Positions 1 to 49,280 are shown, counted from the stretch's first letter. The stretch is DNA of 54,866 nucleotides from Candidatus Pacearchaeota archaeon (GCA_016204145.1 JACQLK010000010.1:1-54866); one strand, 5' to 3'. Made by a program: numbers and translations. The notes: generated from the sequence alone by a model not told the origin.

Positions 1-92
1 CGAAAAAGAGATTATGGGAATTATAGAATAGGAAAAATTAAATGAATAGGATTTTGTTATAATTAAGAATTAGAGATAAAATAACTGCTACA

Positions 93-638
93 TTGATAAA
101 AGATTATCTGTATTGTCCTAGAATGTTTTATTTTAAGCATGTGTTAAATCTTCCCTATTCAGATACTGCGAAAACAATAAAAGGCAAAGAAAAAGAATCT
201 TTGTTCAAAAAACAGACATCGAGAAATAAAATTGTTAAAGACAAACATGAACCAAAATTCGTGAAAAAATATGGGATTTACTTGGATGACGGAGAATTGT
301 CCACAAAGCTGGATTGCATCATGATTGATGAAAATAATAAAGCCGCTTTTCCATTGCAGCTTAAAAATACGAAGACCCCAAAATCCGTTTACAAAACCCA
401 GAGGTTGCAGCTTATGCTAGAATCGTTCCTCATAGAAAAAGTTTTGAAATATAAATCTCCATATGGTTACATAAGATACGCCTTGTCAAATGAATTGATT
501 AAATTAGATTTAAGAGACAAAGGGGAATTATTTGACATTATAACTAGGATTAAAGAACTGATTAAAAGCGAAATATTGCCTCCATCCACAAAATATAAAA
601 AAAGGATTGTTGATAATTGTTACAGGAGATTTTACTGA
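93..638 (+). CDS. cas4: Cas4-like RecB-family nuclease, apparently degenerate
   Basis: The N-terminus (IT)ATLIKDYLYCPRMFYF matches the Cas4 N-terminal Cys motif. KLDCIM...PLQLK resembles the RecB D...ExK motif but has Q in place of E. A QxxxY-like QLMLESF follows. Only one C-terminal Cys (DNCYRRFY-stop) replaces the usual CxxCx5C. The frame is open from 63, so the TTG start at 93 is uncertain. The stop overlaps the effector ATG (TGATG). Confidence 0.6.
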   Translation: MIKDYLYCPRMFYFKHVLNLPYSDTAKTIKGKEKESLFKKQTSRNKIVKDKHEPKFVKKYGIYLDDGELSTKLDCIMIDENNKAAFPLQLKNTKTPKSVYKTQRLQLMLESFLIEKVLKYKSPYGYIRYALSNELIKLDLRDKGELFDIITRIKELIKSEILPPSTKYKKRIVDNCYRRFY

Positions 639-2557
639 TGGGAGAAAAAGTTCAACAAACTATATTCTGTGAAAAATGTGACAAGGAGATAAAAATTCAA
701 AAAAACTATCTTGGAAAAAAAGATGCAATAGAGAAAACAAGAGCCAAGCACGAAAAAAAAGAGCACGCATTAATTACAGGAGTTAAGTTTAAGATATATC
801 CTAAAAAAGAAGAATTAAGCAAACTAAATGACTATTTTAATGACTATGCAAAAGCCATAACTTTTGCTGCCAGAGTTATAGATGAACTAAAATCACCTTT
901 CAAATTTTGCGGGTTATCTATAAGTTGGGTTGAGGATTTAATAGAAAAATATCCAGATAAAGAAGATGTAAAAAAAATTGTAATAAAATATGGATATAGT
1001 CCCAAGCAATTAGAATATGCTTTGGAAATGATTTCAAATAAAAAGAAAGAAAAATATTCATACATTCAGGATAAATGTAACTTTTGTGATTTAGAAACAG
1101 AAATCTTTTATTTAAAATCGGATGGAGGAGTTAAAATATGCAAGCAATGTTATCTTAAAAAATTTAGTGAACAAGGATTGCTAGAAAAAATTTATGCCGC
1201 GAAAGGCAGAAGAGTTAATCCAAGTTTTAATTTATTCAACGTAACAAAAAATCTGTCTAGAACACATAATAATTACATAATCAAAGAAGCCATCCAACTT
1301 CTAGACGCTCTCAAAAAACAAAGAAGAGAAAGAATAGTGAGATTGGCTAAAGACAGAAGAAGGTTAAGACAATTTGAAGAAATGCTTGATGAAGAAAAGA
1401 GATATGAACTTCCTATGAAAGATAGGCAAAGAGAAAAAAGATTTATTCATATAAACCAAAAAGAAAAAGCTTCAGAATTGAGAGGATACACTCACCGAGC
1501 AATAATCGGTAAAATAAAGATTTTAACGAGAAACATCCAAAGAGAACAAAAGTCATTAAATAAAAAATCTCCGATTAATTTTAAAGGCAGTAGAATTAGA
1601 TTGCCCCCCTCTGTAAAATTTAATAAAGAAAAAAGTGAAGTTTCAGTTACAATATCTGATAAGATATCTAAAAAGTTTGAATTTAGTGGTTTAGGGGTTG
1701 CCAATAAACACGGAAAAAGGTTTTTTGAAGAAAAGCTGAAACAAATAGAAGAAAGTAAACCAAAATATTCATATCTTATTAGAAAATTAAAACCAAAATT
1801 TATAGCATTAACAAAAAAAAGGCTAAAAGAGTTGGTTAATGAAAAAGACGATATATACGATTATTATTTACAATATACTTTAGAAGTTTTGCCTGAATTT
1901 AAAGGGAGAGATTATAAAGGCGTTTTAGGTATAGACCGAGGGATAAATACATTAGCTTGTTTAGTTTTTTTGGAAAAGGATAAAAAAATTCCAACATCAG
2001 TAAAATTCTTTAGTGGTAAAGGACTTTTAGAATTTAAGAATAGCAGAAGAAAACAATTATATTTCCTAAAGGGAAAACATAATAAGAAAAAGAAGCAAAA
2101 GAAGATTAGGTTAATAGAACCACGAATTGACCAGATATTACATAGGGTATCTGAACAAATAGTATCGCTGGCTAAAGAGAAAAATGCTGCGATATTCTTG
2201 GAGGATTTACAACAGCCAAAAAAATCAAGATTCAGACAAAAAAGAAGAGTTAAATATAAGTTAAGCCAATTCAACTTCAAAACATTATCTGATTATATTG
2301 AATACAAAGCAAAAAGAGAAGGAATTTTAGTGGATTATGTTCCTCCCGAATTTACGAGTCAAAACTGTTCTCGCTGTGCCATGAATGGAGATATTCACGC
2401 AGATACTCAACGACCTTATAAAAAACCAAATTCAAAAAAACCTTTCACTTCTTTGTTCAAATGCAATAAATGTCAGGTAGAACTTAATTCAGATTATAAC
2501 GCTGCATTTAATATTGCTCAGAAAGGTTTAAAAGTTTTGAATTCCAGTCAATCTTGA
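638..2557 (+). CDS. cas12f: Miniature type V CRISPR effector, Cas12f/Cas14-like (TnpB-derived RuvC nuclease), 639 aa from the ATG at 638
   Basis: The C-terminal half has the split RuvC plus zinc-ribbon layout of TnpB/Cas12: GIDRGINTLA (RuvC-I Asp), AAIFLEDLQ (RuvC-II Glu), CSRC...CNKC zinc ribbon, and NSDYNAAFNIA (RuvC-III Asp). The N-terminus has VKFKIYPKKEELSKLNDYF (TnpB-like WED start) and two further Cys clusters (CEKC..H..H and CNFC-x18-CKQC). It sits between cas4 and a CRISPR array on the same strand. Confidence 0.8.
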   Translation: MGEKVQQTIFCEKCDKEIKIQKNYLGKKDAIEKTRAKHEKKEHALITGVKFKIYPKKEELSKLNDYFNDYAKAITFAARVIDELKSPFKFCGLSISWVEDLIEKYPDKEDVKKIVIKYGYSPKQLEYALEMISNKKKEKYSYIQDKCNFCDLETEIFYLKSDGGVKICKQCYLKKFSEQGLLEKIYAAKGRRVNPSFNLFNVTKNLSRTHNNYIIKEAIQLLDALKKQRRERIVRLAKDRRRLRQFEEMLDEEKRYELPMKDRQREKRFIHINQKEKASELRGYTHRAIIGKIKILTRNIQREQKSLNKKSPINFKGSRIRLPPSVKFNKEKSEVSVTISDKISKKFEFSGLGVANKHGKRFFEEKLKQIEESKPKYSYLIRKLKPKFIALTKKRLKELVNEKDDIYDYYLQYTLEVLPEFKGRDYKGVLGIDRGINTLACLVFLEKDKKIPTSVKFFSGKGLLEFKNSRRKQLYFLKGKHNKKKKQKKIRLIEPRIDQILHRVSEQIVSLAKEKNAAIFLEDLQQPKKSRFRQKRRVKYKLSQFNFKTLSDYIEYKAKREGILVDYVPPEFTSQNCSRCAMNGDIHADTQRPYKKPNSKKPFTSLFKCNKCQVELNSDYNAAFNIAQKGLKVLNSSQS

Positions 2558-2569
2558 GTACCTTTGATG

Positions 2570-2850
2570 AGATGCTATTTGGTAAAATGAATAGCGTTGA
2601 GGTAACGAGATGCCACAAGCTATAGCAGTAATATTCTGCACTATTTTCTACGTAATGTTTAGAATAGGGCAAGTGGAGAAAAGCAAAGGGCGGCGTTGCA
2701 CCGCAGTTAAAGATTCGAAATAATCTAAAAAACTTAGCTGTTGAAAAGAAAGCATTAGCAAGTATAAGTAAGCGGCAATTATTGGTCTCGGCTGATAAAG
2801 TTTACGGATTAATCTTTAATCCCGTTCTGACTTAAAAGTCAGAATTCATT
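2570..2850 (+). ncRNA. Candidate tracrRNA (boundaries approximate)
   Basis: Non-coding spacer between the effector and the array. It contains an 18-bp anti-repeat at 2813-2830 and several local hairpins: gctatt/aatagc near 2573-2596, gcgg/ccgc near 2690-2705, ggatt/aatcc at 2806-2822, and ttctgac/gtcagaa at 2825-2844. Same strand as the effector and crRNA. Confidence 0.45.
2813..2830 (+). other. Anti-repeat segment complementary to the CRISPR repeat
   Basis: tctttaatccc|gttctga pairs antiparallel with repeat nt 10-16 (tcagaac, 7 bp) and nt 20-30 (gggattaagga, 11 bp including one G-U). Repeat nt 17-19 (aaa) bulge out. Confidence 0.6.
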
Positions 2851-2935
2851 TAAAAACAAAATGCAAAAATCACACATTTCAAAAATCTTGGAAAATTTTG
2901 CTTCCTGCGGTCTTTTAGAGCCGAAATTTTTGGCT

Positions 2936-4578
2936 ATTTCACACTCAGAACAAAGGGATTAAGGAATGCAACTATCCCGATGCGCTCTACCCTCAGCCGG
3001 TTATCTCATTTCACACTCAGAACAAAGGGATTAAGGAATGCAACTCCCATTACCGCATTCAGTGCAAGGGTGTCCGTCTATTTCACACTCAGAACAAAGG
3101 GATTAAGGAATGCAACTTCTTTTGAGATAAATTTGTATGGGTAATTTAAGATATTTCACACTCAGAACAAAGGGATTAAGGAATGCAACCGTTTGGGTAA
3201 AATGCTTTTAAAGTGGCAGTTGCTTATTTCACACTCAGAACAAAGGGATTAAGGAATGCAACTTCCTTTGGTTCAGGCGAAGGAATAGTTATTCGGTATT
3301 TCACACTCAGAACAAAGGGATTAAGGAATGCAACAGATTTTCCTTTCAAAACTTCCTCAATTATCTCCTATTTCACACTCAGAACAAAGGGATTAAGGAA
3401 TGCAACAATGTCAAGATGGAACAATCATTGAACTTCAAAATATTTCACACTCAGAACAAAGGGATTAAGGAATGCAACGCTTACGGCGACATATTGCGCC
3501 TTGACGTCGAGGCAATTTCACACTCAGAACAAAGGGATTAAGGAATGCAACAGAATTACAATCCCATCCGGCAATTTCCGGAATGCCATTTCACACTCAG
3601 AACAAAGGGATTAAGGAATGCAACTATTTTTTGCCGCCGGATATTCTTACGGATTTGTCATTTCACACTCAGAACAAAGGGATTAAGGAATGCAACAATG
3701 TCAGAGTGTATTCATAAAAACATAAATGAAAAATTTCACACTCAGAACAAAGGGATTAAGGAATGCAACTGTTCGAGCCCAATGTCGGCAACACGAACTT
3801 TTTGCGGATTTCACACTCAGAACAAAGGGATTAAGGAATGCAACATAAATTCAAAATCCGAGATGTCAATCGTCGTCGTGATTTCACACTCAGAACAAAG
3901 GGATTAAGGAATGCAACTAATAATGCCGTAGCGACGACGACGGGACAGGCACAAATTTCACACTCAGAACAAAGGGATTAAGGAATGCAACTAATTAACG
4001 ACGACGCAGAGCCAGAGGACGATTGGAAATTTCACACTCAGAACAAAGGGATTAAGGAATGCAACAATAACATTATTTATCTGCGTGATGATTGAATTCA
4101 GATTTCACACTCAGAACAAAGGGATTAAGGAATGCAACAAAACGAGCTCGCCGGATTGGGAACCGAGGTCGGATATTTCACACTCAGAACAAAGGGATTA
4201 AGGAATGCAACCGGAACAATCAACTCCGCCACAAGCGGAAGCGTTGACGATTTCACACTCAGAACAAAGGGATTAAGGAATGCAACTATATTCTCGCTTC
4301 TTCTTCAATATCAAACATTTTTATTTCACACTCAGAACAAAGGGATTAAGGAATGCAACTTTTCCCTGCTGTGCTGAATCCCTGGCAAGGGGCTCCATTT
4401 CACACTCAGAACAAAGGGGTTAAGGAATGCAACCGTCGTTGGAGCATAAAATAGAAGATGTTGCCAAAATTTCACACTCAGAACAAAGGGATTAAGGAAT
4501 GCAACCAATGCGTCAAGGATTGCCTGTTTCTCGGAGATCAAATTTCACACTCAGAACAAAGGGGTTAAGGAATGCAAC
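2936..4578 (+). CRISPR. CRISPR array, 23 x 37-nt repeats (ATTTCACACTCAGAACAAAGGGATTAAGGAATGCAAC), 22 spacers of 35-38 nt
   Basis: Repeats counted by eye start at 2936, 3008, 3080, 3153, 3226, 3298, 3370, 3442, 3515, 3588, 3660, 3733, 3808, 3881, 3955, 4029, 4102, 4175, 4250, 4323, 4397, 4469 and 4542. Repeats 21 and 23 carry A>G at repeat position 23 (GGGGTTAAGG). All spacers are unique. Confidence 0.97.
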
Positions 4579-4588
4579 TAATTAAATT

Positions 4589-5125
4589 TTACAATTTCGC
4601 AAACTCTTCAATCATCTTCTTATTCCTTACCTCTGGATGAAATAAAACTCCGTAAATCGGCTTTGTCTTGTGTTTTATCGCCTGCGGAATTTTGCCGTCG
4701 GTGAATTGCTCAAATTCCTTCGGCAATGTCATGTAATTGTTATGTAAATGATAAACTTCGTGTTTTCCAATTAACGATAAAAATTCGCGATTAAATTCCT
4801 CGTTGTAAAACCCGATTTCTGTTTCTTTTTTTATTTTTCCGCCGAAAGCCAAAGAAATAATCTGCATTCCGGCGCAAATTCCGAGAAGGGGCTTTTCAAA
4901 ATACTTAATCCATTGAAACCTGTCAAGATGCTTCAAGTAATCGCAATCTTTCAACGAAGTGCCACAAATTATAATTTGGTCTGCTTTCCTCAAATCGTTT
5001 TCATTAATTTCTTTGTAATGCCTTGTAAAAAATTTTATCTTATTTTTTTTCAATATTTTTTCAATCGGCTTTACAAATTCATAGTAATGCAGCTTTTCCT
5101 TGCAGACGTTTATTATCAGTATCAT
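4589..5125 (-). CDS. Class I glutamine amidotransferase (GMP synthase subunit A-like)
   Basis: LLGICAGMQ (nucleophile Cys) and GVLFHPE (His/Glu of the triad). The 178-aa size fits a stand-alone GATase subunit. Confidence 0.7.
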   Translation of the reverse strand: MILIINVCKEKLHYYEFVKPIEKILKKNKIKFFTRHYKEINENDLRKADQIIICGTSLKDCDYLKHLDRFQWIKYFEKPLLGICAGMQIISLAFGGKIKKETEIGFYNEEFNREFLSLIGKHEVYHLHNNYMTLPKEFEQFTDGKIPQAIKHKTKPIYGVLFHPEVRNKKMIEEFAKL

Positions 5126-21240: not shown

Positions 21241-21334
21241 TGGGCACGGAGGGAATCGAACCCCCATCTCCTGGGCTCTCCGCAAATTTTATTCTGCGCT
21301 GGAGCCAGGTAGTCTGCCACTAGCCTACGCACCC
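21241..21334 (-). tRNA. tRNA-Trp(CCA) with a 23-nt canonical intron (21276-21298)
   Basis: The reverse complement reads GGGTGCG..GGGGGTTCGATTCCCTCCGTGCCCA. There is a 7-bp acceptor stem (two G-U pairs), a T arm, and a 5-bp anticodon stem CCTGG/CCAGG. A bulge-helix-bulge motif gives the spliced loop CUCCAGC. An oligo-T tract follows the 3' end. D-stem pairing is weak. Confidence 0.75.
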
Positions 21335-42342: not shown

Positions 42343-45300
42343 ATGCAAGACAAACACCTTATAGTAAAAAAATACCTTGAAGAGCACTCGCTTGTCGAGT
42401 CAAACGTCATTTCTTTCAATAATTTTATCGACAAGAGAATGCAGGAAATCGTGAACGAAATTTCCGAGACGATTGTCAATGACGAATTTGAAATAGTCCT
42501 CGGGAAAATAAAAGTCGGAAAACCGAATGTCATAGAATCCGACGGAAGCTCTTCTTTGGTGATGCCGTACGAAGCGCGATTGAGAAACCTCACTTATTCC
42601 GCGCCGATAACTCTCGAATTGACAATAAAAAAAGACGGGCAGATTGATTCCGACGACGTTGAAATCGGAAGAATTCCGATAATGATCGGAAGCAACAGAT
42701 GCAATACCTACGAATTCTCAAAAAACGATTTGATAAAAAATTACAACGATCCAAATGATCCGGGGGGATATTTCATAATCAACGGAAACGAAAGGGTTAT
42801 GATAATGTCCGAAGACCTTGCTGAGAACCAGCCGTTCATAGAGGAAAACTCGAAAAAAAATCTTCATTTGAGAATATTCTCGTCAAAAGGGACTTACAGG
42901 ATTCCGACGACAATCTCGGAAAACAAGGATGGAATTCTCGAGGTTTCCTTTTCAAGATTTCGCGATTTGCCCGCGATTGTTCTTTTGAAAACTCTCGGGA
43001 TGACGAAAGAGGCGGACATTGCAAAGCTCATAGGAAAAGAAACAGACAGCGTCATTGTCAATCTTTATGAATTCGTGAATCTCAGCACGCCCGAAGACGC
43101 GATGCTTAACATCGCCGAAAAAGCGTCGCTGCAAGGAACAAAAAAAGAAATTCTTGACAGGGTTAAAAGCAGGATTGACTCTTATTTGTTTCCGCACATA
43201 GGGCAGAAAAAAGAAGACAGGATGAAAAAAGCGGTGACTTTGTGCAAATTGATAAAGCAGTTTCTCACGGCAAAGGAAAATCCCGAATTGAAAACCGACA
43301 AAGACCATTACGCAAACAAACGTGTCCGCCTGTCCGGCGATTTACTTGCAAGCTTGTTCAGGGTGAACCTCGGCGTTTTGATAAGAGACATACAATATTC
43401 CCTGCAAAAATCCTCAAAAAGAAAAAAATTATTCTCAATAAGGACTATTGCAAAATCGACTTTGTTTTCCCACCGCGTCGAGTCGGCGATAGCGACGGGA
43501 AGTTGGACCGGAGAAAGGTCGGGAGTTACGCAAAACATGGACAAGACAAACTATCTCGCGATAATTTCGCAACTGCAAAGGGTTTCATCCATGCTTCCTT
43601 CGGATCAGGAAAATTTCCCCGCGAGAACATTGCATCCGACTCATTACGGAAAATTCTGCCCGATTGAAACGCCCGAGGGAACTGAAATCGGATTGAGAAA
43701 AAATCTCGCGATTTTGTGCAAAATATCGACTCGAGTTGAGTTGGACGAGGAGAAATTCATAAAAAATCTTGAATCGGAGGGAATGGAAAAGGACGGCGTT
43801 TCGGGAAGCGATGTTTTCTTCAACGGAAGATTTATCGGAAGCACGAACAATTCCGGGGAATTTGCGAAAAAAATCCGCGAGAAAAGAAGAAATGGCGAGC
43901 TCCCTCTTCAATTAAATGTAAGATATGACAAAGGATTCAACATGATATTGATTTCAAGCGAACCGGGAAGGGCGTTAAGACCTTTGATAATCGTCGACAA
44001 CGGAATTCCGAGGATAACGAAAGACCATTTGATAAAATTGCAGCAAAACGAAATAAAATGGATTGACTTGATAAAACAAAAGGCGATAGAATATCTTGAC
44101 ACTTCTGAAGAGGAAAACGCGCTCGTCGCATTGTATGAGCATGAACTTACTCCGGAACATACGCATCTTGAAGTTGATCCCATGGATTTGCTCGGCGTCG
44201 TCACGTCTCTTGTTCCTTACGGAAATCACGACCAAAGCTCGCGTCTGAACAGAGGAAGCAAGACGCAAAAGCAGGCGCTTGGAATGTATGCGACAAATTA
44301 TCTTGTCCGGCTTGATACCGACGTTTCTGTTCTTCAATATCCGCAAAAGCCGATTGTAAGAAGTTTTGTTTACGACACGCTGAACACTTATCCTGCAGGG
44401 CAGAATTTAATCGTCGCGATAATGACTCATGAGGGATACAACATGGAAGACGCCCTTGTATTGAACAAGGGAAGCGTAGACAGAGGTGTCGGGAGAAGCT
44501 ACTACTTCAGGCCGCATTCTGCTGTTGAAATGCATTATGCCGGAAGCTTGAGAGACGAAATATTGATTCCAAGCAAAGACACGTCGGGATACAAAACGGA
44601 GGAAAGCTACAGATTTTTGGACGATGACGGGATCGTCTCTCCGGAAGCGGAAATCAACGAGGGAGAGGTTCTGATAGGAAAAGTCGCGCCTCCAAAATTC
44701 CTCTCTGAAGCGAGGGAAATTTCAATCAAGACAAAAAAAGAATCTTCCGTCACAATGAGACAGGAAGAGCACGGAACAGTCGAGGGCGTCTTTATAACTC
44801 AGGACGAAGAGGGAAACAAGGTCGTTCAGGTAAAAACAAGGGACATGAGAATTCCGGAATTGGGCGACAAATTCGCGACATCCCACGGACAGAAAGGAGT
44901 TATCGGCGCAATCGTCTCTGAAAATGACGTTCCGTTCACGTCAAGGGGAATGAAGCCGGATGTTGTTTTCAATCCTCACGGGCTTCCAAGCAGAATGACT
45001 GTCGGATATTTGCTTGAGCTTCTTGCGGGAAAAGTCGGCTCTCTTAGAGGAGAAACGGTCGACGGAACTCCGTTCTCCGGAGAAAGCAAAAAGGATTTGG
45101 AAAACCAGCTTGCAAATCTCGGATTCAGATACGACGGAAAAGAAACAATGTACAATCCCGTGACGGGAAAACGCCTTGTTGCAAAAATTTTCATCGGAAG
45201 CTTGTATTACTTGAAATTGAAATACATGGTTGCAAACAAAATCCACGGAAGGGCGTCCGGAAAAATCGCGTTGCTTACGCGACAACCGATTGAGGGAAAA

Positions 45301-45594
45301 TCAAGAGGCGGCGCCCTGCGGCTGGGAGAAATGGAGCAACAAGCATTGGTTGCGCACGGAGCGTCGCTGTTGCTGAAGGAAAGATATGATTCGGACAAGG
45401 TGGCTCTGCACATTTGCGAAAAATGCGGCGCGATTGCCGTCGAAGATAACATAAGGGGAAAAATTTACTGTCCTCTTTGCAACTCCGAGGATACGGAGCC
45501 GGTCGAAATTTCATACGCGTTCAAGCTTTTGCTCGAAGAACTTCAGGGATTGCACATTCAAACTAAATTCAAGTTGAAGAACAAATATGAGTGA
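42343..45594 (+). CDS. rpoB: RNA polymerase subunit B (Rpo2), unsplit
   Basis: 1083 aa with GDKFATSHGQKGV, GEMEQQALVAHGA, a C-terminal zinc ribbon CEKCG...CPLC, and other universal beta-subunit motifs. Confidence 0.97.
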   Translation: MQDKHLIVKKYLEEHSLVESNVISFNNFIDKRMQEIVNEISETIVNDEFEIVLGKIKVGKPNVIESDGSSSLVMPYEARLRNLTYSAPITLELTIKKDGQIDSDDVEIGRIPIMIGSNRCNTYEFSKNDLIKNYNDPNDPGGYFIINGNERVMIMSEDLAENQPFIEENSKKNLHLRIFSSKGTYRIPTTISENKDGILEVSFSRFRDLPAIVLLKTLGMTKEADIAKLIGKETDSVIVNLYEFVNLSTPEDAMLNIAEKASLQGTKKEILDRVKSRIDSYLFPHIGQKKEDRMKKAVTLCKLIKQFLTAKENPELKTDKDHYANKRVRLSGDLLASLFRVNLGVLIRDIQYSLQKSSKRKKLFSIRTIAKSTLFSHRVESAIATGSWTGERSGVTQNMDKTNYLAIISQLQRVSSMLPSDQENFPARTLHPTHYGKFCPIETPEGTEIGLRKNLAILCKISTRVELDEEKFIKNLESEGMEKDGVSGSDVFFNGRFIGSTNNSGEFAKKIREKRRNGELPLQLNVRYDKGFNMILISSEPGRALRPLIIVDNGIPRITKDHLIKLQQNEIKWIDLIKQKAIEYLDTSEEENALVALYEHELTPEHTHLEVDPMDLLGVVTSLVPYGNHDQSSRLNRGSKTQKQALGMYATNYLVRLDTDVSVLQYPQKPIVRSFVYDTLNTYPAGQNLIVAIMTHEGYNMEDALVLNKGSVDRGVGRSYYFRPHSAVEMHYAGSLRDEILIPSKDTSGYKTEESYRFLDDDGIVSPEAEINEGEVLIGKVAPPKFLSEAREISIKTKKESSVTMRQEEHGTVEGVFITQDEEGNKVVQVKTRDMRIPELGDKFATSHGQKGVIGAIVSENDVPFTSRGMKPDVVFNPHGLPSRMTVGYLLELLAGKVGSLRGETVDGTPFSGESKKDLENQLANLGFRYDGKETMYNPVTGKRLVAKIFIGSLYYLKLKYMVANKIHGRASGKIALLTRQPIEGKSRGGALRLGEMEQQALVAHGASLLLKERYDSDKVALHICEKCGAIAVEDNIRGKIYCPLCNSEDTEPVEISYAFKLLLEELQGLHIQTKFKLKNKYE

Positions 45595-45791: not shown

Positions 45792-48700
45792 ATGCAAAAC
45801 ATTATTAGAAAAAAAGTCGACGAAATAAAATTCGCTTTGCTCAGTCCGGAACAGATTAAAAAAATCTCGTGCGCGAAAATCGTGACGCCGGAATTGTACG
45901 ACATTGACGGATATCCTGTCGACGGCGGTTTGATGGATTTGCGTCTTGGAGCGATAGACCCCGGAGTAAGATGCAGAACCTGCGGAGGGCGTTTGAAAGA
46001 ATGTCTTGGTCACCCGGGAAGAATAGAACTTGCAAGGGCGATTTTCCATTTGAAATACATTCCGATAATTGAAACCGGTTTGAGATGCTTTTGCCACGAA
46101 TGCGGAAAGCTTCTTCTCTCTGACGCGGACTTGAAAAAATATTCCGCAAGCGAAAGGGCGAAAAAAGCGAAAGACGCGAAAAGATGCCCCCATTGCAACG
46201 CCGCCCACGAGAAAGTCAAGCTGGAAAAGCCGACAAGTTTTTATATAGGAAAAAAACGCCTTTTCCCGACGGCAGTCAGAGAAATTCTTGTTAACATAAA
46301 AGACGAGGAATTGAAAAAAATAGGAATCGATCCGGAGAGCTGCAGACCCGAGTGGGCTGTTTTGACGTTCCTTCTCGTTCCTTCCGTGACAATAAGACCG
46401 AGCATAATTCTCGAATCCGGAGAGAGAAGTGAAGATGATTTGACTCACAAACTCTCGGACATAATAAGGGCAAACCAGCGACTCTGGGAAAATTTGAACG
46501 CTGGAGCGCCTGAAGTTATCATCGAGGATTTGTGGGATTTGCTTCAATTTCATATAACCACTTTTTTCGACAACAGCGTCTCCAAAATTCCTCCCGCAAG
46601 ACATCGAAGCGGACAGCCGCTGAAAACAATAACCGAAAGGATAAAGGGGAAAGAGGGAAGAATAAGAAAAAACCTCGCCGGAAAAAGAGTCAACTATTCC
46701 GGAAGAACCGTAATCTCGCCGGATCCTTCAATGGAATTGAACGAAGTCGGAATTCCATTTGAAATCGCGAAAATCGTCACCGTCGCGGAAACAGTCAACG
46801 ATTCAAACATGGATTATTTGAAAAAGTTGATTGAAAACGGCGAAAAATATCCGGGCGCGAATTATGTCATTCGCCCCGACGGAAAAAAGAAGAAAATAAC
46901 TCCGGAATTGAAAGAGGAAATAATGAATGAAATCTCTCCGGAATACAAAGTTGAAAGGCACTTGCAAAACGGCGACATTGTCTTGTTCAACAGACATCCT
47001 TCGCTGCACAAAATGAGCTTGATGGCGCATGTCGTAAAAATCCTTCCGGGAAGAACTTTCCGTTTGCATCCCGGAACCGCATTCCCTTACAACGCGGACT
47101 TCGACGGGGATGAGATGAACATACACTCTCCGCAAACCGAAGAGGCGAGGGCCGAGGCGAAAATACTTCTCGATGTGAAAAAAAATTTAATGTCTCCGAA
47201 AAACAACACGAACTTTCTCGGCTGTTCGCAGGACGCGATAACTGGAAATTATCTTCTCGGAACTTCCGAATTTTCCGCGGATTACGCAAATCAACTTCTT
47301 TACAAAACGGGAATAATAAAGCCGGTCTCAAAGAAAAACATTTCCGGATTTGAGTTGTTCTCAAACATTCTTCCGAAAATAAATTTCTCAAACGGTTCCG
47401 TGAAAATACAGGACGGGGAAATTTTAAAGGGAAAAATAGACAAGACGCTGTTCGGGCAGGAAGACGGCGAATTGATAAGGGAATTGGACAAAGAAATCGG
47501 AAGGGACGAAACGGTGAAGACGATAAAGCGCGCGTTCGACTTGGGAATAAATTACCTGACAGACAGGGGAATAACAATTTCCCTGGAGGATTTGAATTTG
47601 AGCAGGAATCCGATTGCGCAGGGCGAAGAAATAATAAAAAAAGCCGAGAAGAGAACGGAAGAACTTATTGAGCTGTACAACAAGGAGGACTTTGAAATAA
47701 TTCCCGGAAAAACAAAAGAAGACACGAGGGAAATAAAGATCCTGCAGGTGTTGAACGAAGTAAGAACAAAAGTCGGGGAAATCGTAAAGCAGGAATTTCC
47801 TTCGGATAATCCGGTGAATCACATGATAATTTCAGGAGGCGGAGGAAACATTCTCAACATCACTCAGATTGCGTGTTGCGTCGGACAACAGGCGTTGTGG
47901 GGAAAAAGAATTGAAATAGGGTACAATCACAGAACGCTTTCATTTTTCAGAAAAGGGGAATTGTCTCCGGCGTCGAGAGGATTCATAAAAAGCTCTTTCA
48001 TGCGCGGTCTCAGACCCGATGAATTTTTCTTCGGCGCCATCACGGGAAGGGATTCCCTTATGGATACCGCTCTTAGAACTCCGAAATCCGGATATTTATA
48101 TCGGCGTTTGGCAAGCGCGCTTCAGGATTTGAAAGTTGAATACGACGGAACGGTGAGGGACAGCAACAATAGTATCATACAATACAAATACGGCTCCGAC
48201 GGCATTGACGTTTCAAAATTGCACTTGAACGGAAAAATAGAGTCAGGAGAAGCGATAGGAATCGTCACCGCGCAGTCGTTCGGAGAGCCGTCGACGCAGA
48301 TGGCGCTGAACGTTTTCCACTTTGCCGGCGTTCAGGAAATGCAGATTACCGCGGGTCTTCCTCGATTGATTGAAATTTTCGACGCAAGAAAAAAACCCTC
48401 GTCTCCGAAAATGGAAATATATTTGTCAAGGGACTATAACAATGAAAAAGAAGCGAGGGCGTTCGCGGAAAAAGTCAAGGAAGTGAAAGTCGCGGAAATC
48501 GCGTCCGAGATAAATGTAAATTTCAACGACAAAAACATTGATATAAAAATCGACAAAGAAAAGTTGAGGCATGCGCATATCGGAATAAAGACGGTTGTCG
48601 AGCGCTTGAACGAAGCGGGATACAAATCAAGGGAAAAAAGCGAATCGGTTGCGATAAGCGCTCCCGAATTGGGATTCAAAGAATTGTACAAATTGAAAGA

Positions 48701-49280
48701 AAAAATAAAAAAAGAAATAATCTCCGGAGTGAAGGGAATAAGCCAGGTCCTGATTGTAAAAAGGGACAAGGATTACGTCGTCACGACTCTCGGAACAAAC
48801 ATGAAAAAAATAATAACTTTAAAAGAAGTTGAAAAAAACAAAACAATTTCAAACGACTTCCATGAAATCGCCGGAATTTTCGGAATCGAAGCCGGAAGGC
48901 AATTGGTAATAGATGAAATCAATCGCGTTTTAAGCACGCAGGGGCTTGACATAAACATAAGGCATCTCGAGCTTGTCGCCGACGCAATGACAAACACCGG
49001 AGATGTGAAGGGAATAACAAGAATGGGAATCATCGCGCAAAAATCCTCGATACTTGCAAAAGCGACATTTGAAACGCCCGTGAAGCAATTTGTGAACGCG
49101 TCTGTAAAGGGAAGCAAGGACAAATTAACGAGCGTCGTCGAGAATATAATTCTAAACCAACCGGTTCCCGTCGGGACAGGGCTTCCGGGATTGCTTGTTA
49201 AAGTTGTCGGTCCGATGTCAAAGAAAGACAAGGACATGAAAACCGCGAAGAAAGAAATTGTGGAAAAAGTGAATGAATAA
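45792..49280 (+). CDS. rpoA: RNA polymerase largest subunit, A' and A'' fused in one ORF (Rpo1)
   Basis: A' motifs (zinc sites CRTCGG.. and CHECG, plus the catalytic YNADFDGDEMN) and A'' motifs (trigger loop GEAIGIVTAQSFGEPSTQMALNVFHFAGV) lie in a single uninterrupted 1162-aa frame. Confidence 0.95.
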   Translation: MQNIIRKKVDEIKFALLSPEQIKKISCAKIVTPELYDIDGYPVDGGLMDLRLGAIDPGVRCRTCGGRLKECLGHPGRIELARAIFHLKYIPIIETGLRCFCHECGKLLLSDADLKKYSASERAKKAKDAKRCPHCNAAHEKVKLEKPTSFYIGKKRLFPTAVREILVNIKDEELKKIGIDPESCRPEWAVLTFLLVPSVTIRPSIILESGERSEDDLTHKLSDIIRANQRLWENLNAGAPEVIIEDLWDLLQFHITTFFDNSVSKIPPARHRSGQPLKTITERIKGKEGRIRKNLAGKRVNYSGRTVISPDPSMELNEVGIPFEIAKIVTVAETVNDSNMDYLKKLIENGEKYPGANYVIRPDGKKKKITPELKEEIMNEISPEYKVERHLQNGDIVLFNRHPSLHKMSLMAHVVKILPGRTFRLHPGTAFPYNADFDGDEMNIHSPQTEEARAEAKILLDVKKNLMSPKNNTNFLGCSQDAITGNYLLGTSEFSADYANQLLYKTGIIKPVSKKNISGFELFSNILPKINFSNGSVKIQDGEILKGKIDKTLFGQEDGELIRELDKEIGRDETVKTIKRAFDLGINYLTDRGITISLEDLNLSRNPIAQGEEIIKKAEKRTEELIELYNKEDFEIIPGKTKEDTREIKILQVLNEVRTKVGEIVKQEFPSDNPVNHMIISGGGGNILNITQIACCVGQQALWGKRIEIGYNHRTLSFFRKGELSPASRGFIKSSFMRGLRPDEFFFGAITGRDSLMDTALRTPKSGYLYRRLASALQDLKVEYDGTVRDSNNSIIQYKYGSDGIDVSKLHLNGKIESGEAIGIVTAQSFGEPSTQMALNVFHFAGVQEMQITAGLPRLIEIFDARKKPSSPKMEIYLSRDYNNEKEARAFAEKVKEVKVAEIASEINVNFNDKNIDIKIDKEKLRHAHIGIKTVVERLNEAGYKSREKSESVAISAPELGFKELYKLKEKIKKEIISGVKGISQVLIVKRDKDYVVTTLGTNMKKIITLKEVEKNKTISNDFHEIAGIFGIEAGRQLVIDEINRVLSTQGLDINIRHLELVADAMTNTGDVKGITRMGIIAQKSSILAKATFETPVKQFVNASVKGSKDKLTSVVENIILNQPVPVGTGLPGLLVKVVGPMSKKDKDMKTAKKEIVEKVNE

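Follow-up and report, generated by a model that had tools for sequence, protein, structure and literature searches.

Cas12f-type nucleases are the smallest CRISPR effectors in genome editing. The effectors of the type V-F2 branch are also known as Cas14b, for example Cas14b4, a naming that reportedly goes back to Harrington and colleagues in 2018. This branch is rare, and descriptions of its guide RNA are few. The Cas12f2 proteins Mi1, Mi2 and AuCas12f2 cleave double-stranded DNA (dsDNA) beside 5' T-rich protospacer-adjacent motifs (PAMs), and the intergenic region of their loci is the source of the trans-activating CRISPR RNA (tracrRNA) (Karvelis et al., 2020, PMC7229846). For the V-F1 effector Un1Cas12f1 (Cas14a1), cryo-electron microscopy of the complex with its single-guide RNA (sgRNA) revealed that the loop of Stem 3 forms the first anti-repeat:repeat duplex (AR:R1), that Stem 4 is the long stem, and that the 3' end forms the second duplex (AR:R2) (PMC8053092). 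The subject here is the left end of a 54,866-nucleotide (nt) stretch of DNA from a Candidatus Pacearchaeota archaeon (GCA_016204145.1, JACQLK010000010.1:1-54866), called the window at its full length, which carries an apparently intact type V-F2 CRISPR-Cas locus of a small-genome archaeon, with Cas12f2 (formerly Cas14b) as effector (Table 1). Very probably, it represents one half, that of the effector and of expression, of a chromosomally encoded V-F2 system consisting of cas1-cas2-cas4-cas12f2, a tracrRNA, a leader and an array. The locus is not a new type of system, and is a divergent further member of the described and biochemically characterised V-F2 kind.

A compact type V-F locus had been proposed in an initial annotation, and profile scores above curated cutoffs, at least 19 relatives with the same locus, cas1 and cas2 on a leftward extension of the contig and a covarying tracrRNA all agree with this. 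The assignment of the open reading frame (ORF) of 639 amino acids (aa) to the Cas12f/Cas14 type was likewise upheld, with the subtype now refined to V-F2 (Cas12f2, that is Cas14b) and not Cas14a/Cas12f1. Against the NCBIfam model NF049972 CRISPR_Cas12f2, which has a curated cutoff of 450, the protein scores 703.2 bits (2e-211), and the match spans the profile from 1 to 524 of 524 with effector residues 48-635. The top PADLOC models are a V-F effector model (1e-153) and 'Cas14b' (8e-146), and Pfam recognizes Cas12f1-like_TNB (3e-18) together with RuvC_1. The split-RuvC and zinc-ribbon motifs that had been noticed are all present, namely GIDRG (D433), IFLED (E522), NSDYNAA (D619) and CSRC...CNKC (C577/C580/C609/C612), and these catalytic and zinc-binding residues are invariant across an alignment of 18 proteins. 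The three acidic residues also align with the catalytic motifs of AsCas12f. In BLASTP comparisons with partial sequences of the tested proteins, which for Mi1Cas12f2 (= Cas14b4) comprised the first 399 aa, the effector shows 29% identity to residues 1-366 of Mi1Cas12f2 (E=5e-37) and 22% to the N-terminal part of Mi2Cas12f2 (E=1e-14). By analogy with these proteins, the window Cas12f2 is predicted to cut dsDNA.

The relationship to V-F1 effectors is more restricted. Matches to sequences in the PDB are confined to the RuvC/TNB half of the protein (residues ~410-632), where AsCas12f is best (E=9e-12) and Un1Cas12f1 follows with E=5e-10, and the first 399 aa of Un1Cas12f1 gave no significant BLASTP alignment with the window effector. 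An AlphaFold (AF2) model built from 18 homologs, with a predicted local distance difference test score (pLDDT) of 82 and a predicted template modelling (TM) score of 0.62, is closest to Cas12f1 complexes, the best being AsCas12f 8J12 (E=7.5e-14, 15% identity, TM 0.56, target-normalised), followed by TnpB, Cas12g, CasX and others; no Cas12f2 structure is among the PDB sequence and structure matches. A V-F1 (Cas12f1/Cas14a-like) effector would account for this homology of the C-terminal part, for a repeat ending in AAGGAATGCAAC as in the Un1Cas12f1 CRISPR RNA (crRNA), and for a tracrRNA topology parallel to that of the Un1Cas12f1 sgRNA. Despite these likenesses, a V-F1 identity is very improbable: the protein has no similarity to the N-terminal 400 aa of Un1Cas12f1 and clearly resembles Mi1Cas12f2, the E-values of the Cas12f2/Cas14b profiles are best by over 100 orders of magnitude, and the subtypes are not distinguished by their repeat handle, as an Un1-like repeat (36/37) also accompanies a Cas12f2-type effector in the locus L007. 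A V-F2 effector is thus the preferred identity, and the likeness to Mi1Cas12f2 (PMC7229846) extends to the gene order cas1-cas2-cas4-effector, a tracrRNA encoded between the effector gene and a same-strand array, small-genome archaeal hosts, and a RuvC triad, TNB zinc ribbon and CxxC...CxxC finger in the REC lobe.

Relatives of this effector are few. A word-indexed search of 5.8 billion proteins returned 18 full-length relatives, and only 18 cluster representatives among 1.84 billion have E<=1e-30. Genome and metagenome scans yielded 24 loci with full-length or near-full-length effector relatives, from Pacearchaeota, Woesearchaeota, Aenigmatarchaeota, Nanoarchaeota, Hadarchaeales and Methanosarcinales metagenome-assembled genomes (MAGs) and from JGI metagenomes. 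Every sufficiently long related contig encodes cas1-cas2-cas4-effector, followed by a gap of 294-407 nt and an array with the repeat end ...GAATGCAAC, which is the canonical V-F2 architecture. In the window, the effector ATG shares one base with the cas4 stop codon (TGATG), in line with the translational coupling noted earlier.

This conserved arrangement bears on whether the ORF could be a transposon-borne TnpB, the accessory nuclease of IS200/IS605 or IS607 elements, that lies beside a CRISPR array by chance. The protein is homologous to TnpB of IS200/IS605 (e.g., ISDra2 TnpB) in its RuvC and zinc-ribbon core and shares with it a descent from RNA-guided nucleases, its nearest named homologs, from Pacearchaeota, Nanoarchaeota and Aenigmatarchaeota MAGs, are publicly annotated as 'transposase' at NCBI, and there are sub-threshold matches to guided_TnpB (97.1, cutoff 100) and OrfB_IS605. 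However, IS607_TnpB scores 36.6, far under its cutoff of 350, and the effector gene overlaps cas4 by 1 nt downstream of cas1-cas2, in a gene order that is kept, along with tracrRNA and array, across distant relatives. Its neighbors are cas genes and the array, with no transposon context and no adjacent tnpA, although hairpins of insertion sequence ends were not explicitly searched. Moreover, unlike TnpB, the protein is larger, at 639 aa with the REC and zinc-finger architecture of Cas12f2, and its guide would be supplied by a CRISPR array and a tracrRNA, the 3' flank RNA being complementary to the CRISPR repeat and not an omega-RNA (reRNA) that ends at a transposon end. A chance TnpB neighbor accordingly has a negligible probability, and the effector is best read as the Cas12f2 of a V-F2 locus.

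Three of the related loci show further variation. In L089 and L091, Cas1 is 80-83% identical to that of the window lineage and the effector, which has no N-terminal finger, just 39-41%; loci with 58%-identical effectors have Cas1 proteins that are 71-74% identical. These discordant identities suggest that adaptation and effector modules may have been exchanged. In L122:7897-8420 (Logan SRR8925765 contig), an 85%-identical effector and a full tracrRNA precede an array of one repeat with a mutated last base, directly followed by an SMC-family gene.

Between the effector gene and the array, where a tracrRNA region had been proposed, there is a conserved plus-strand structure with covariation and an anti-repeat, and the RNA is predicted to be a tracrRNA. 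The structure was named from the window sequence and then counted on an alignment of the gap plus the first repeat from 19 loci, which contains long conserved blocks. Over the 69 pairs tested, 89.1% of cells are paired, versus 31-44% after displacement of the 3' partners by 1-3 columns. Compensatory changes on both sides are seen in 41 of the 69 pairs, and the observed score was reached by none of 500 column shuffles. Among individual elements, a stem of CCAC/GUGG plus GC/GC is 100% paired, with five of its six pairs covarying; values for other stems are given in Table 1. It is covariation that carries the structure, since folding of the single sequence is only weakly better than that of shuffles (z = -2.05). 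Rfam returned no family over this region at gathering or permissive thresholds.

The predicted tracrRNA would pair with the repeat at two places. In the anti-repeat, TCTTTAATCCC pairs with GGGATTAAGGA and GTTC(TGA) with (TCA)GAAC of the repeat, leaving an AAA bulge on the repeat side. RNAduplex places an 18-bp interaction of the repeat with plus-strand nucleotides 2812-2831 at -23.6 kcal/mol, and across the 19 loci this anti-repeat:repeat duplex (helix 11) is 93.8% paired with six covarying pairs, the adjoining GUUC:GAAY (helix 12) being 98.7% paired. The second contact joins a hairpin loop, GUUGCA, to the repeat end UGCAAC (helix 7), for which six pairs are possible in 19 of 19 loci. The frequent G-U character of the conserved pairs indicates that the plus strand is the one transcribed. 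A tracrRNA on the minus strand was considered and rejected, as its best duplex with the repeat is weaker (-16.4 kcal/mol) and many conserved G-U pairs would become A-C mismatches.

This layout resembles the guide of Un1Cas12f1 (PDB 7C7L, 7L48/7L49; PMC8053092) in combining a loop that pairs with the repeat 3' end (AR:R1), an enclosing stem (Stem 4) and a 3' anti-repeat (AR:R2), so that the GUUGCA loop is the predicted equivalent of anti-repeat:repeat duplex 1 in the Cas14a1 sgRNA. In contrast to the Un1Cas12f1 guide, the predicted window tracrRNA is about twice as long (~300 vs 140 nt), and its anti-repeat pairs with another segment of the repeat. The second stem carries an insert of ~45 nt with two hairpins, which the window has in common with its two close relatives and with five loci at a greater distance. 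A link between this insert and the ~40-aa insertion in the protein was also considered, and was rejected because L006, L007, L086, L087 and L088 have the 45-nt insert and proteins without the 40-aa insertion.

The array, as described initially, comprises 23 copies of ATTTCACACTCAGAACAAAGGGATTAAGGAATGCAAC and 22 unique spacers of 35-38 nt on the same strand as the effector, and begins after a 378-nt gap from the effector stop (2558-2935). Repeats 21 and 23 each contain one A>G change, and the other 21 are exact. The initial annotation had proposed that the handle AAGGAAUGCAAC at the repeat 3' end is that of the Cas14a1/Un1Cas12f1 crRNA; a comparison with the published sgRNA sequence, of which the repeat part ends in ...GAAUGAAGGAAUGCAAC (supplement of PMC7229846), confirmed this identity. 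The last 12 nt of the two repeats are identical, and the 3' end GGAATGCAAC is common to all relatives and to the published Un1Cas12f1 crRNA. In a Methanosarcinales MAG (CAYWNO010000117.1, L007:4253-5251), the repeat is identical to that of Un1Cas12f1 (Cas14a1) at 36 of 37 positions, the effector is Cas12f2-like (32% identity to Mi1Cas12f2, with no N-terminal similarity to Un1Cas12f1), and the tracrRNA is unlike that of Un1. Because an Un1-type repeat is here combined with a Cas12f2-type effector, almost identical repeats serve two effector subtypes.

Two putative promoters can be proposed in this region. The leader begins with the box TTTAAAAA, given as TTTATAAA in the relatives, which lies ~80 nt upstream of the first repeat and is nearly invariant in the 19-locus alignment, and this box may serve as the archaeal TATA box for the array. 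The position of the mutated repeats (21 and 23) at the opposite end of the array is consistent with a leader on the effector-proximal side. In addition, a GG(T/C)TTAAA(A/T) string occurs at the equivalent K-G-L-K/N codons of cas12f2 in ~20 of 22 loci and precedes the first tracrRNA stem by 29-31 nt, which suggests that the tracrRNA may have its own promoter inside the cas12f2 coding sequence. The evidence for this intragenic promoter is only suggestive, as AT-rich genomes would be expected to encode Leu by TTA. A promoter in this position may itself constrain the C-terminus of Cas12f2.

The left end of the locus is cut by the window start, and its continuation was found on L001, a 4.6-kb Logan contig that encodes an identical effector protein and is 99.7% identical to window nucleotides 1-2963. 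Leftward extension of the contig, an approach already suggested in the initial annotation, thereby revealed complete genes for cas4 (189 aa, ATG start), cas2 (98 aa) and cas1 (326 aa). The nine mismatches between the window and L001 are all changes to A or T and all fall inside window nucleotides 1-72. One of them turns the cas4 ATG (69-71) into ATT, so that the first canonical cas4 start in the window is a TTG at 93, and another creates an in-frame stop in the cas2 tail. These mismatches are likely an assembly error at the contig end or a strain variant, and because they abolish the cas4 ATG and shorten the cas2 tail, part of the apparent degeneracy of the window cas4 is probably a contig-end artefact.

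The description of cas4 as degenerate was nevertheless correct, and it applies to the clade, as seen across 15 aligned loci of V-F2 type, and not to the window alone. The protein matches Pfam Cas_Cas4 (5e-8), TIGR00372 (64.9, cutoff 65) and PADLOC Cas4b (5e-24). In Pcal_0546, a Glu and a Tyr are required for nuclease activity and four Cys bind the iron-sulfur (Fe-S) cluster (PMC4176176). Alignment to Pcal_0546 (4R5Q) and across the 15 loci revealed that the Asp of motif II and the Lys of motif III are retained. The protein also preserves a RecB-type nuclease fold. Gln takes the place of the metal-binding Glu (Glu136 of Pcal_0546) in 15 of 15 loci (PxQxK; PLQLK in the window), and the QhXXY Tyr is absent from all 15. 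In the window sub-clade, Cas4 ends in ...DNCYRRFY, which reduces the C-terminal CxxCxxxxxC to one Cys and leaves two of the four Fe-S cysteines; this Cas4 falls short of the canonical definition and still belongs to the Cas4 fold family. These substitutions run counter to a survey of the family, in which all Cas4 proteins are said to keep these catalytic and Cys features (PMC5704561). As the gene stays a conserved full-length ORF in all loci, the most economical explanation is that Cas4 has been retained, probably with a non-catalytic role in adaptation.

The effector has accessory features beyond the conserved core. A CEKC...H...H finger (C11, C14, H38, H43), modelled by AF2 as two strands (8-11, 16-19) and a helix (30-43), is kept in 16 of the 18 aligned proteins. 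Neither Mi1Cas12f2 nor the curated profiles include this accessory domain, the NCBIfam and PADLOC matches beginning at residue 47-48. The second cluster, CNFC...CKQC (C147/C150/C168/C171), varies little or not at all and lies at the position where Cas12f1 has its REC zinc finger (PMC8053092). The initial annotation had taken the extra Cys clusters and the larger size to suggest a distinct subfamily; for the clusters this idea fails, because both are widespread among the 18 aligned proteins. The extra length comes from two insertions, of ~40 aa and ~13 aa. The longer of them occurs only in the window protein and in P0002 and P0003 (85-86% identical, from Logan assemblies), and is modelled as three helices (95-104, 108-117 and 122-133; pLDDT ~84-88). 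Together with the N-terminal finger, which is found in most of the window clade, this insertion distinguishes the window protein from Mi1Cas12f2, than which it is ~95 aa longer.

To judge from the sequence evidence taken together, the V-F2 locus is genuine, complete and probably functional, and the observations that weigh against this assessment are of several kinds. In the N-terminal 400 aa of the Cas12f2 proteins with known biochemistry, identity to the effector is only 22-29%, and the effector bears the ~40-aa insertion in addition. In the tracrRNA, the outermost 5' stem (helix 1) is weak, at 52% paired, and the pairing of the loop with the repeat end has no covariation support because both sides are essentially invariant, which makes it compatible with the alignment, not proven. 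Cas4 is without the residues that other Cas4 proteins need for nuclease activity, making the adaptation route uncertain. Finally, the PAM-proximal 22 nt of spacers 1, 2, 4, 5, 8, 9, 12 and 17 each had 0 matches in IMG/VR, the whole array had no blastn match in phage and plasmid collections, and the PAM is not readable, since no protospacer was found.

By analogy with Mi1, Mi2 and AuCas12f2, the PAM of the window system would be expected to be T-rich. All spacers were also compared with the rest of the window and the fetched loci, which produced chance matches of 13-15 nt only and no self-match. The G+C content of the spacers (window 2973-4541) ranges from 22% to 59%, compared with 38% for the window, and this spread suggests targets in genomes of more than one kind, among them possibly a host of higher G+C content or the mobile elements of that host.

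Some of these observations could equally belong to a decaying or non-immune remnant, in which the array was once active and the effector or adaptation module has since become non-functional, for example through an inactivated Cas4. The losses from Cas4 of the catalytic Glu, the QhXXY Tyr and two Fe-S cysteines, spacers unmatched in any searched sequence, the ATT start of cas4 in the window copy and the array of L122, reduced to one degenerate repeat beside an 85%-identical effector, would all fit such decay. However, the catalytic and zinc residues of the effector are all intact and invariant, 21 of 23 repeats are identical and 22 of 22 spacers unique, and the ATT falls among the first 72 nt, an error-prone stretch, with ATG at the same place in the near-identical L001. 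Moreover, the Cas4 substitutions are common to 15 loci with full-length ORFs that are 28-58% identical to the window Cas4, which points to purifying selection on an altered, retained protein. The chance that the locus is such a remnant is therefore small, and a functional V-F2 system remains the favored interpretation.

A functional V-F2 system of this kind would be expected to work as follows. Cas1-Cas2, together with a probably non-catalytic Cas4, would add new spacers to the array at the end next to the leader. The array would be transcribed from the TATA box at ~2849. A separate tracrRNA of ~300 nt would be transcribed from the TATA box in the last cas12f2 codons and would pair with each repeat twice, through the GUUGCA loop with UGCAAC and through the 3' anti-repeat with GAAC...GGGATTAAGGA. 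Cas12f2, as a monomer or as an asymmetric dimer like Un1Cas12f1, would bind this dual RNA, and the spacer part at the crRNA 3' side would guide it to complementary DNA beside a 5' PAM, where the single RuvC site (D433/E522/D619) would cut the target DNA.

Table 1. Features of the type V-F2 locus and its flank; positions are those of the window and paired positions are the two sides of a stem.
Feature	Position	Strand	Basis
cas2, 3' tail (gene cut by window start)	1-79	+	tblastn of L001 Cas2 matches window 2-76
cas4, 189 codons	69-638	+	Pfam, TIGR00372, PADLOC, alignments
cas12f2 (cas14b), 639 aa	638-2557	+	NCBIfam NF049972, PADLOC, Pfam, alignment of 18 proteins, AF2 model
N-terminal beta-beta-alpha CxxC...H(x4)H finger (C11, C14, H38, H43)	659-766	+	Alignment, AF2
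Clade-specific insertion of ~40 aa (residues ~93-135), three predicted helices	914-1042	+	Alignment, AF2
TATA-like box TTTAAAA, putative tracrRNA promoter	2527-2533	+	In last cas12f2 codons (K-G-L-K)
Predicted tracrRNA, ends approximate	2553-2851	+	19-locus alignment, covariation
tracrRNA outer stem	2559-2563/2600-2604	+	19-locus alignment
tracrRNA 5' hairpin	2572-2579/2590-2597	+	89% paired, 6/7 pairs covary
tracrRNA stem with two-hairpin insert of ~45 nt	2613-2616/2673-2676	+	19-locus alignment
tracrRNA hairpin GCGG-CGUUGCA-CCGC	2690-2693/2701-2704	+	19-locus alignment
tracrRNA hairpin loop GUUGCA, complementary to repeat end UGCAAC	2695-2700	+	19/19 loci
tracrRNA enclosing long-range stem GAUUCG/CGGAUU	2712-2717/2805-2810	+	95.6% paired, 4 pairs covary
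Anti-repeat	2813-2830	+	RNAduplex, covariation
tracrRNA terminal hairpin, then T-run	2825-2831/2838-2844	+	19-locus alignment
CRISPR leader with putative TATA box TTTAAAAA at 2849-2856	2849-2935	+	19-locus alignment
CRISPR array, 23 x 37-nt repeats and 22 spacers	2936-4578	+	Repeat detection
GATase ORF	4589-5125	-	Pfam GATase; gene end 10 nt past last repeat

The remainder of the window is ordinary archaeal chromosome, with genes for RNA polymerase subunits, ribonucleotide reductase, the Lhr helicase and ArgRS. A GATase gene had been said to start 10 nt after the last repeat; the distance is right, and the start is not, since the gene lies on the minus strand and its 3' end faces the array in a convergent arrangement. 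The RNA polymerase large subunit (window 45792-49280, plus strand) has Rpb1 domains 1-5 within one ORF of 1162 aa, such that A' and A'' appear fused, and subunit B (42343-45594, plus strand) is unsplit, with 1083 aa. A 94-nt tRNA (21241-21334, minus strand), scored at 46.5 bits by the Rfam tRNA model and not reported by ARAGORN, is probably of the archaeal kind that contains an intron. Judging by its archaeal RNA polymerase genes and by the taxa of the nearest Cas12f2 homologs, the host would be an AT-rich archaeon with DPANN-type MAGs as its closest relatives.

The clade-specific insertion, the well-supported tracrRNA model and the unusual Cas4 are of secondary interest in this locus. A further-reaching proposal, which is possible and on balance unlikely, would set the window protein and its two close relatives apart as a Cas12f2 lineage of distinct structure, with an N-terminal finger, a three-helix insertion in the REC lobe, a ~300-nt tracrRNA with two extra hairpins, and an assembly (stoichiometry or RNA contacts) or PAM unlike those of tested Cas12f, and would make the V-F2 Cas4 an adaptation factor that has neither nuclease activity nor an Fe-S cluster and chooses PAMs without cutting. 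A Cas4 of this kind, if true, would run against the published rule by which every Cas4 protein has its catalytic motifs and four cysteines.

As a whole, the locus is an incremental addition that leaves the current picture of CRISPR biology unchanged, useful for the mining of compact nucleases and unsurprising to a specialist. It adds a divergent Cas12f2 ortholog with extra domains to the family. Together with its 19 relatives, it also provides a comparative model of tracrRNA and crRNA pairing in V-F2 systems that would be directly usable for the design of a single-guide RNA. Furthermore, the clade-wide loss of catalytic and Fe-S residues from Cas4 offers a natural test of whether spacer acquisition needs the nuclease activity of Cas4.

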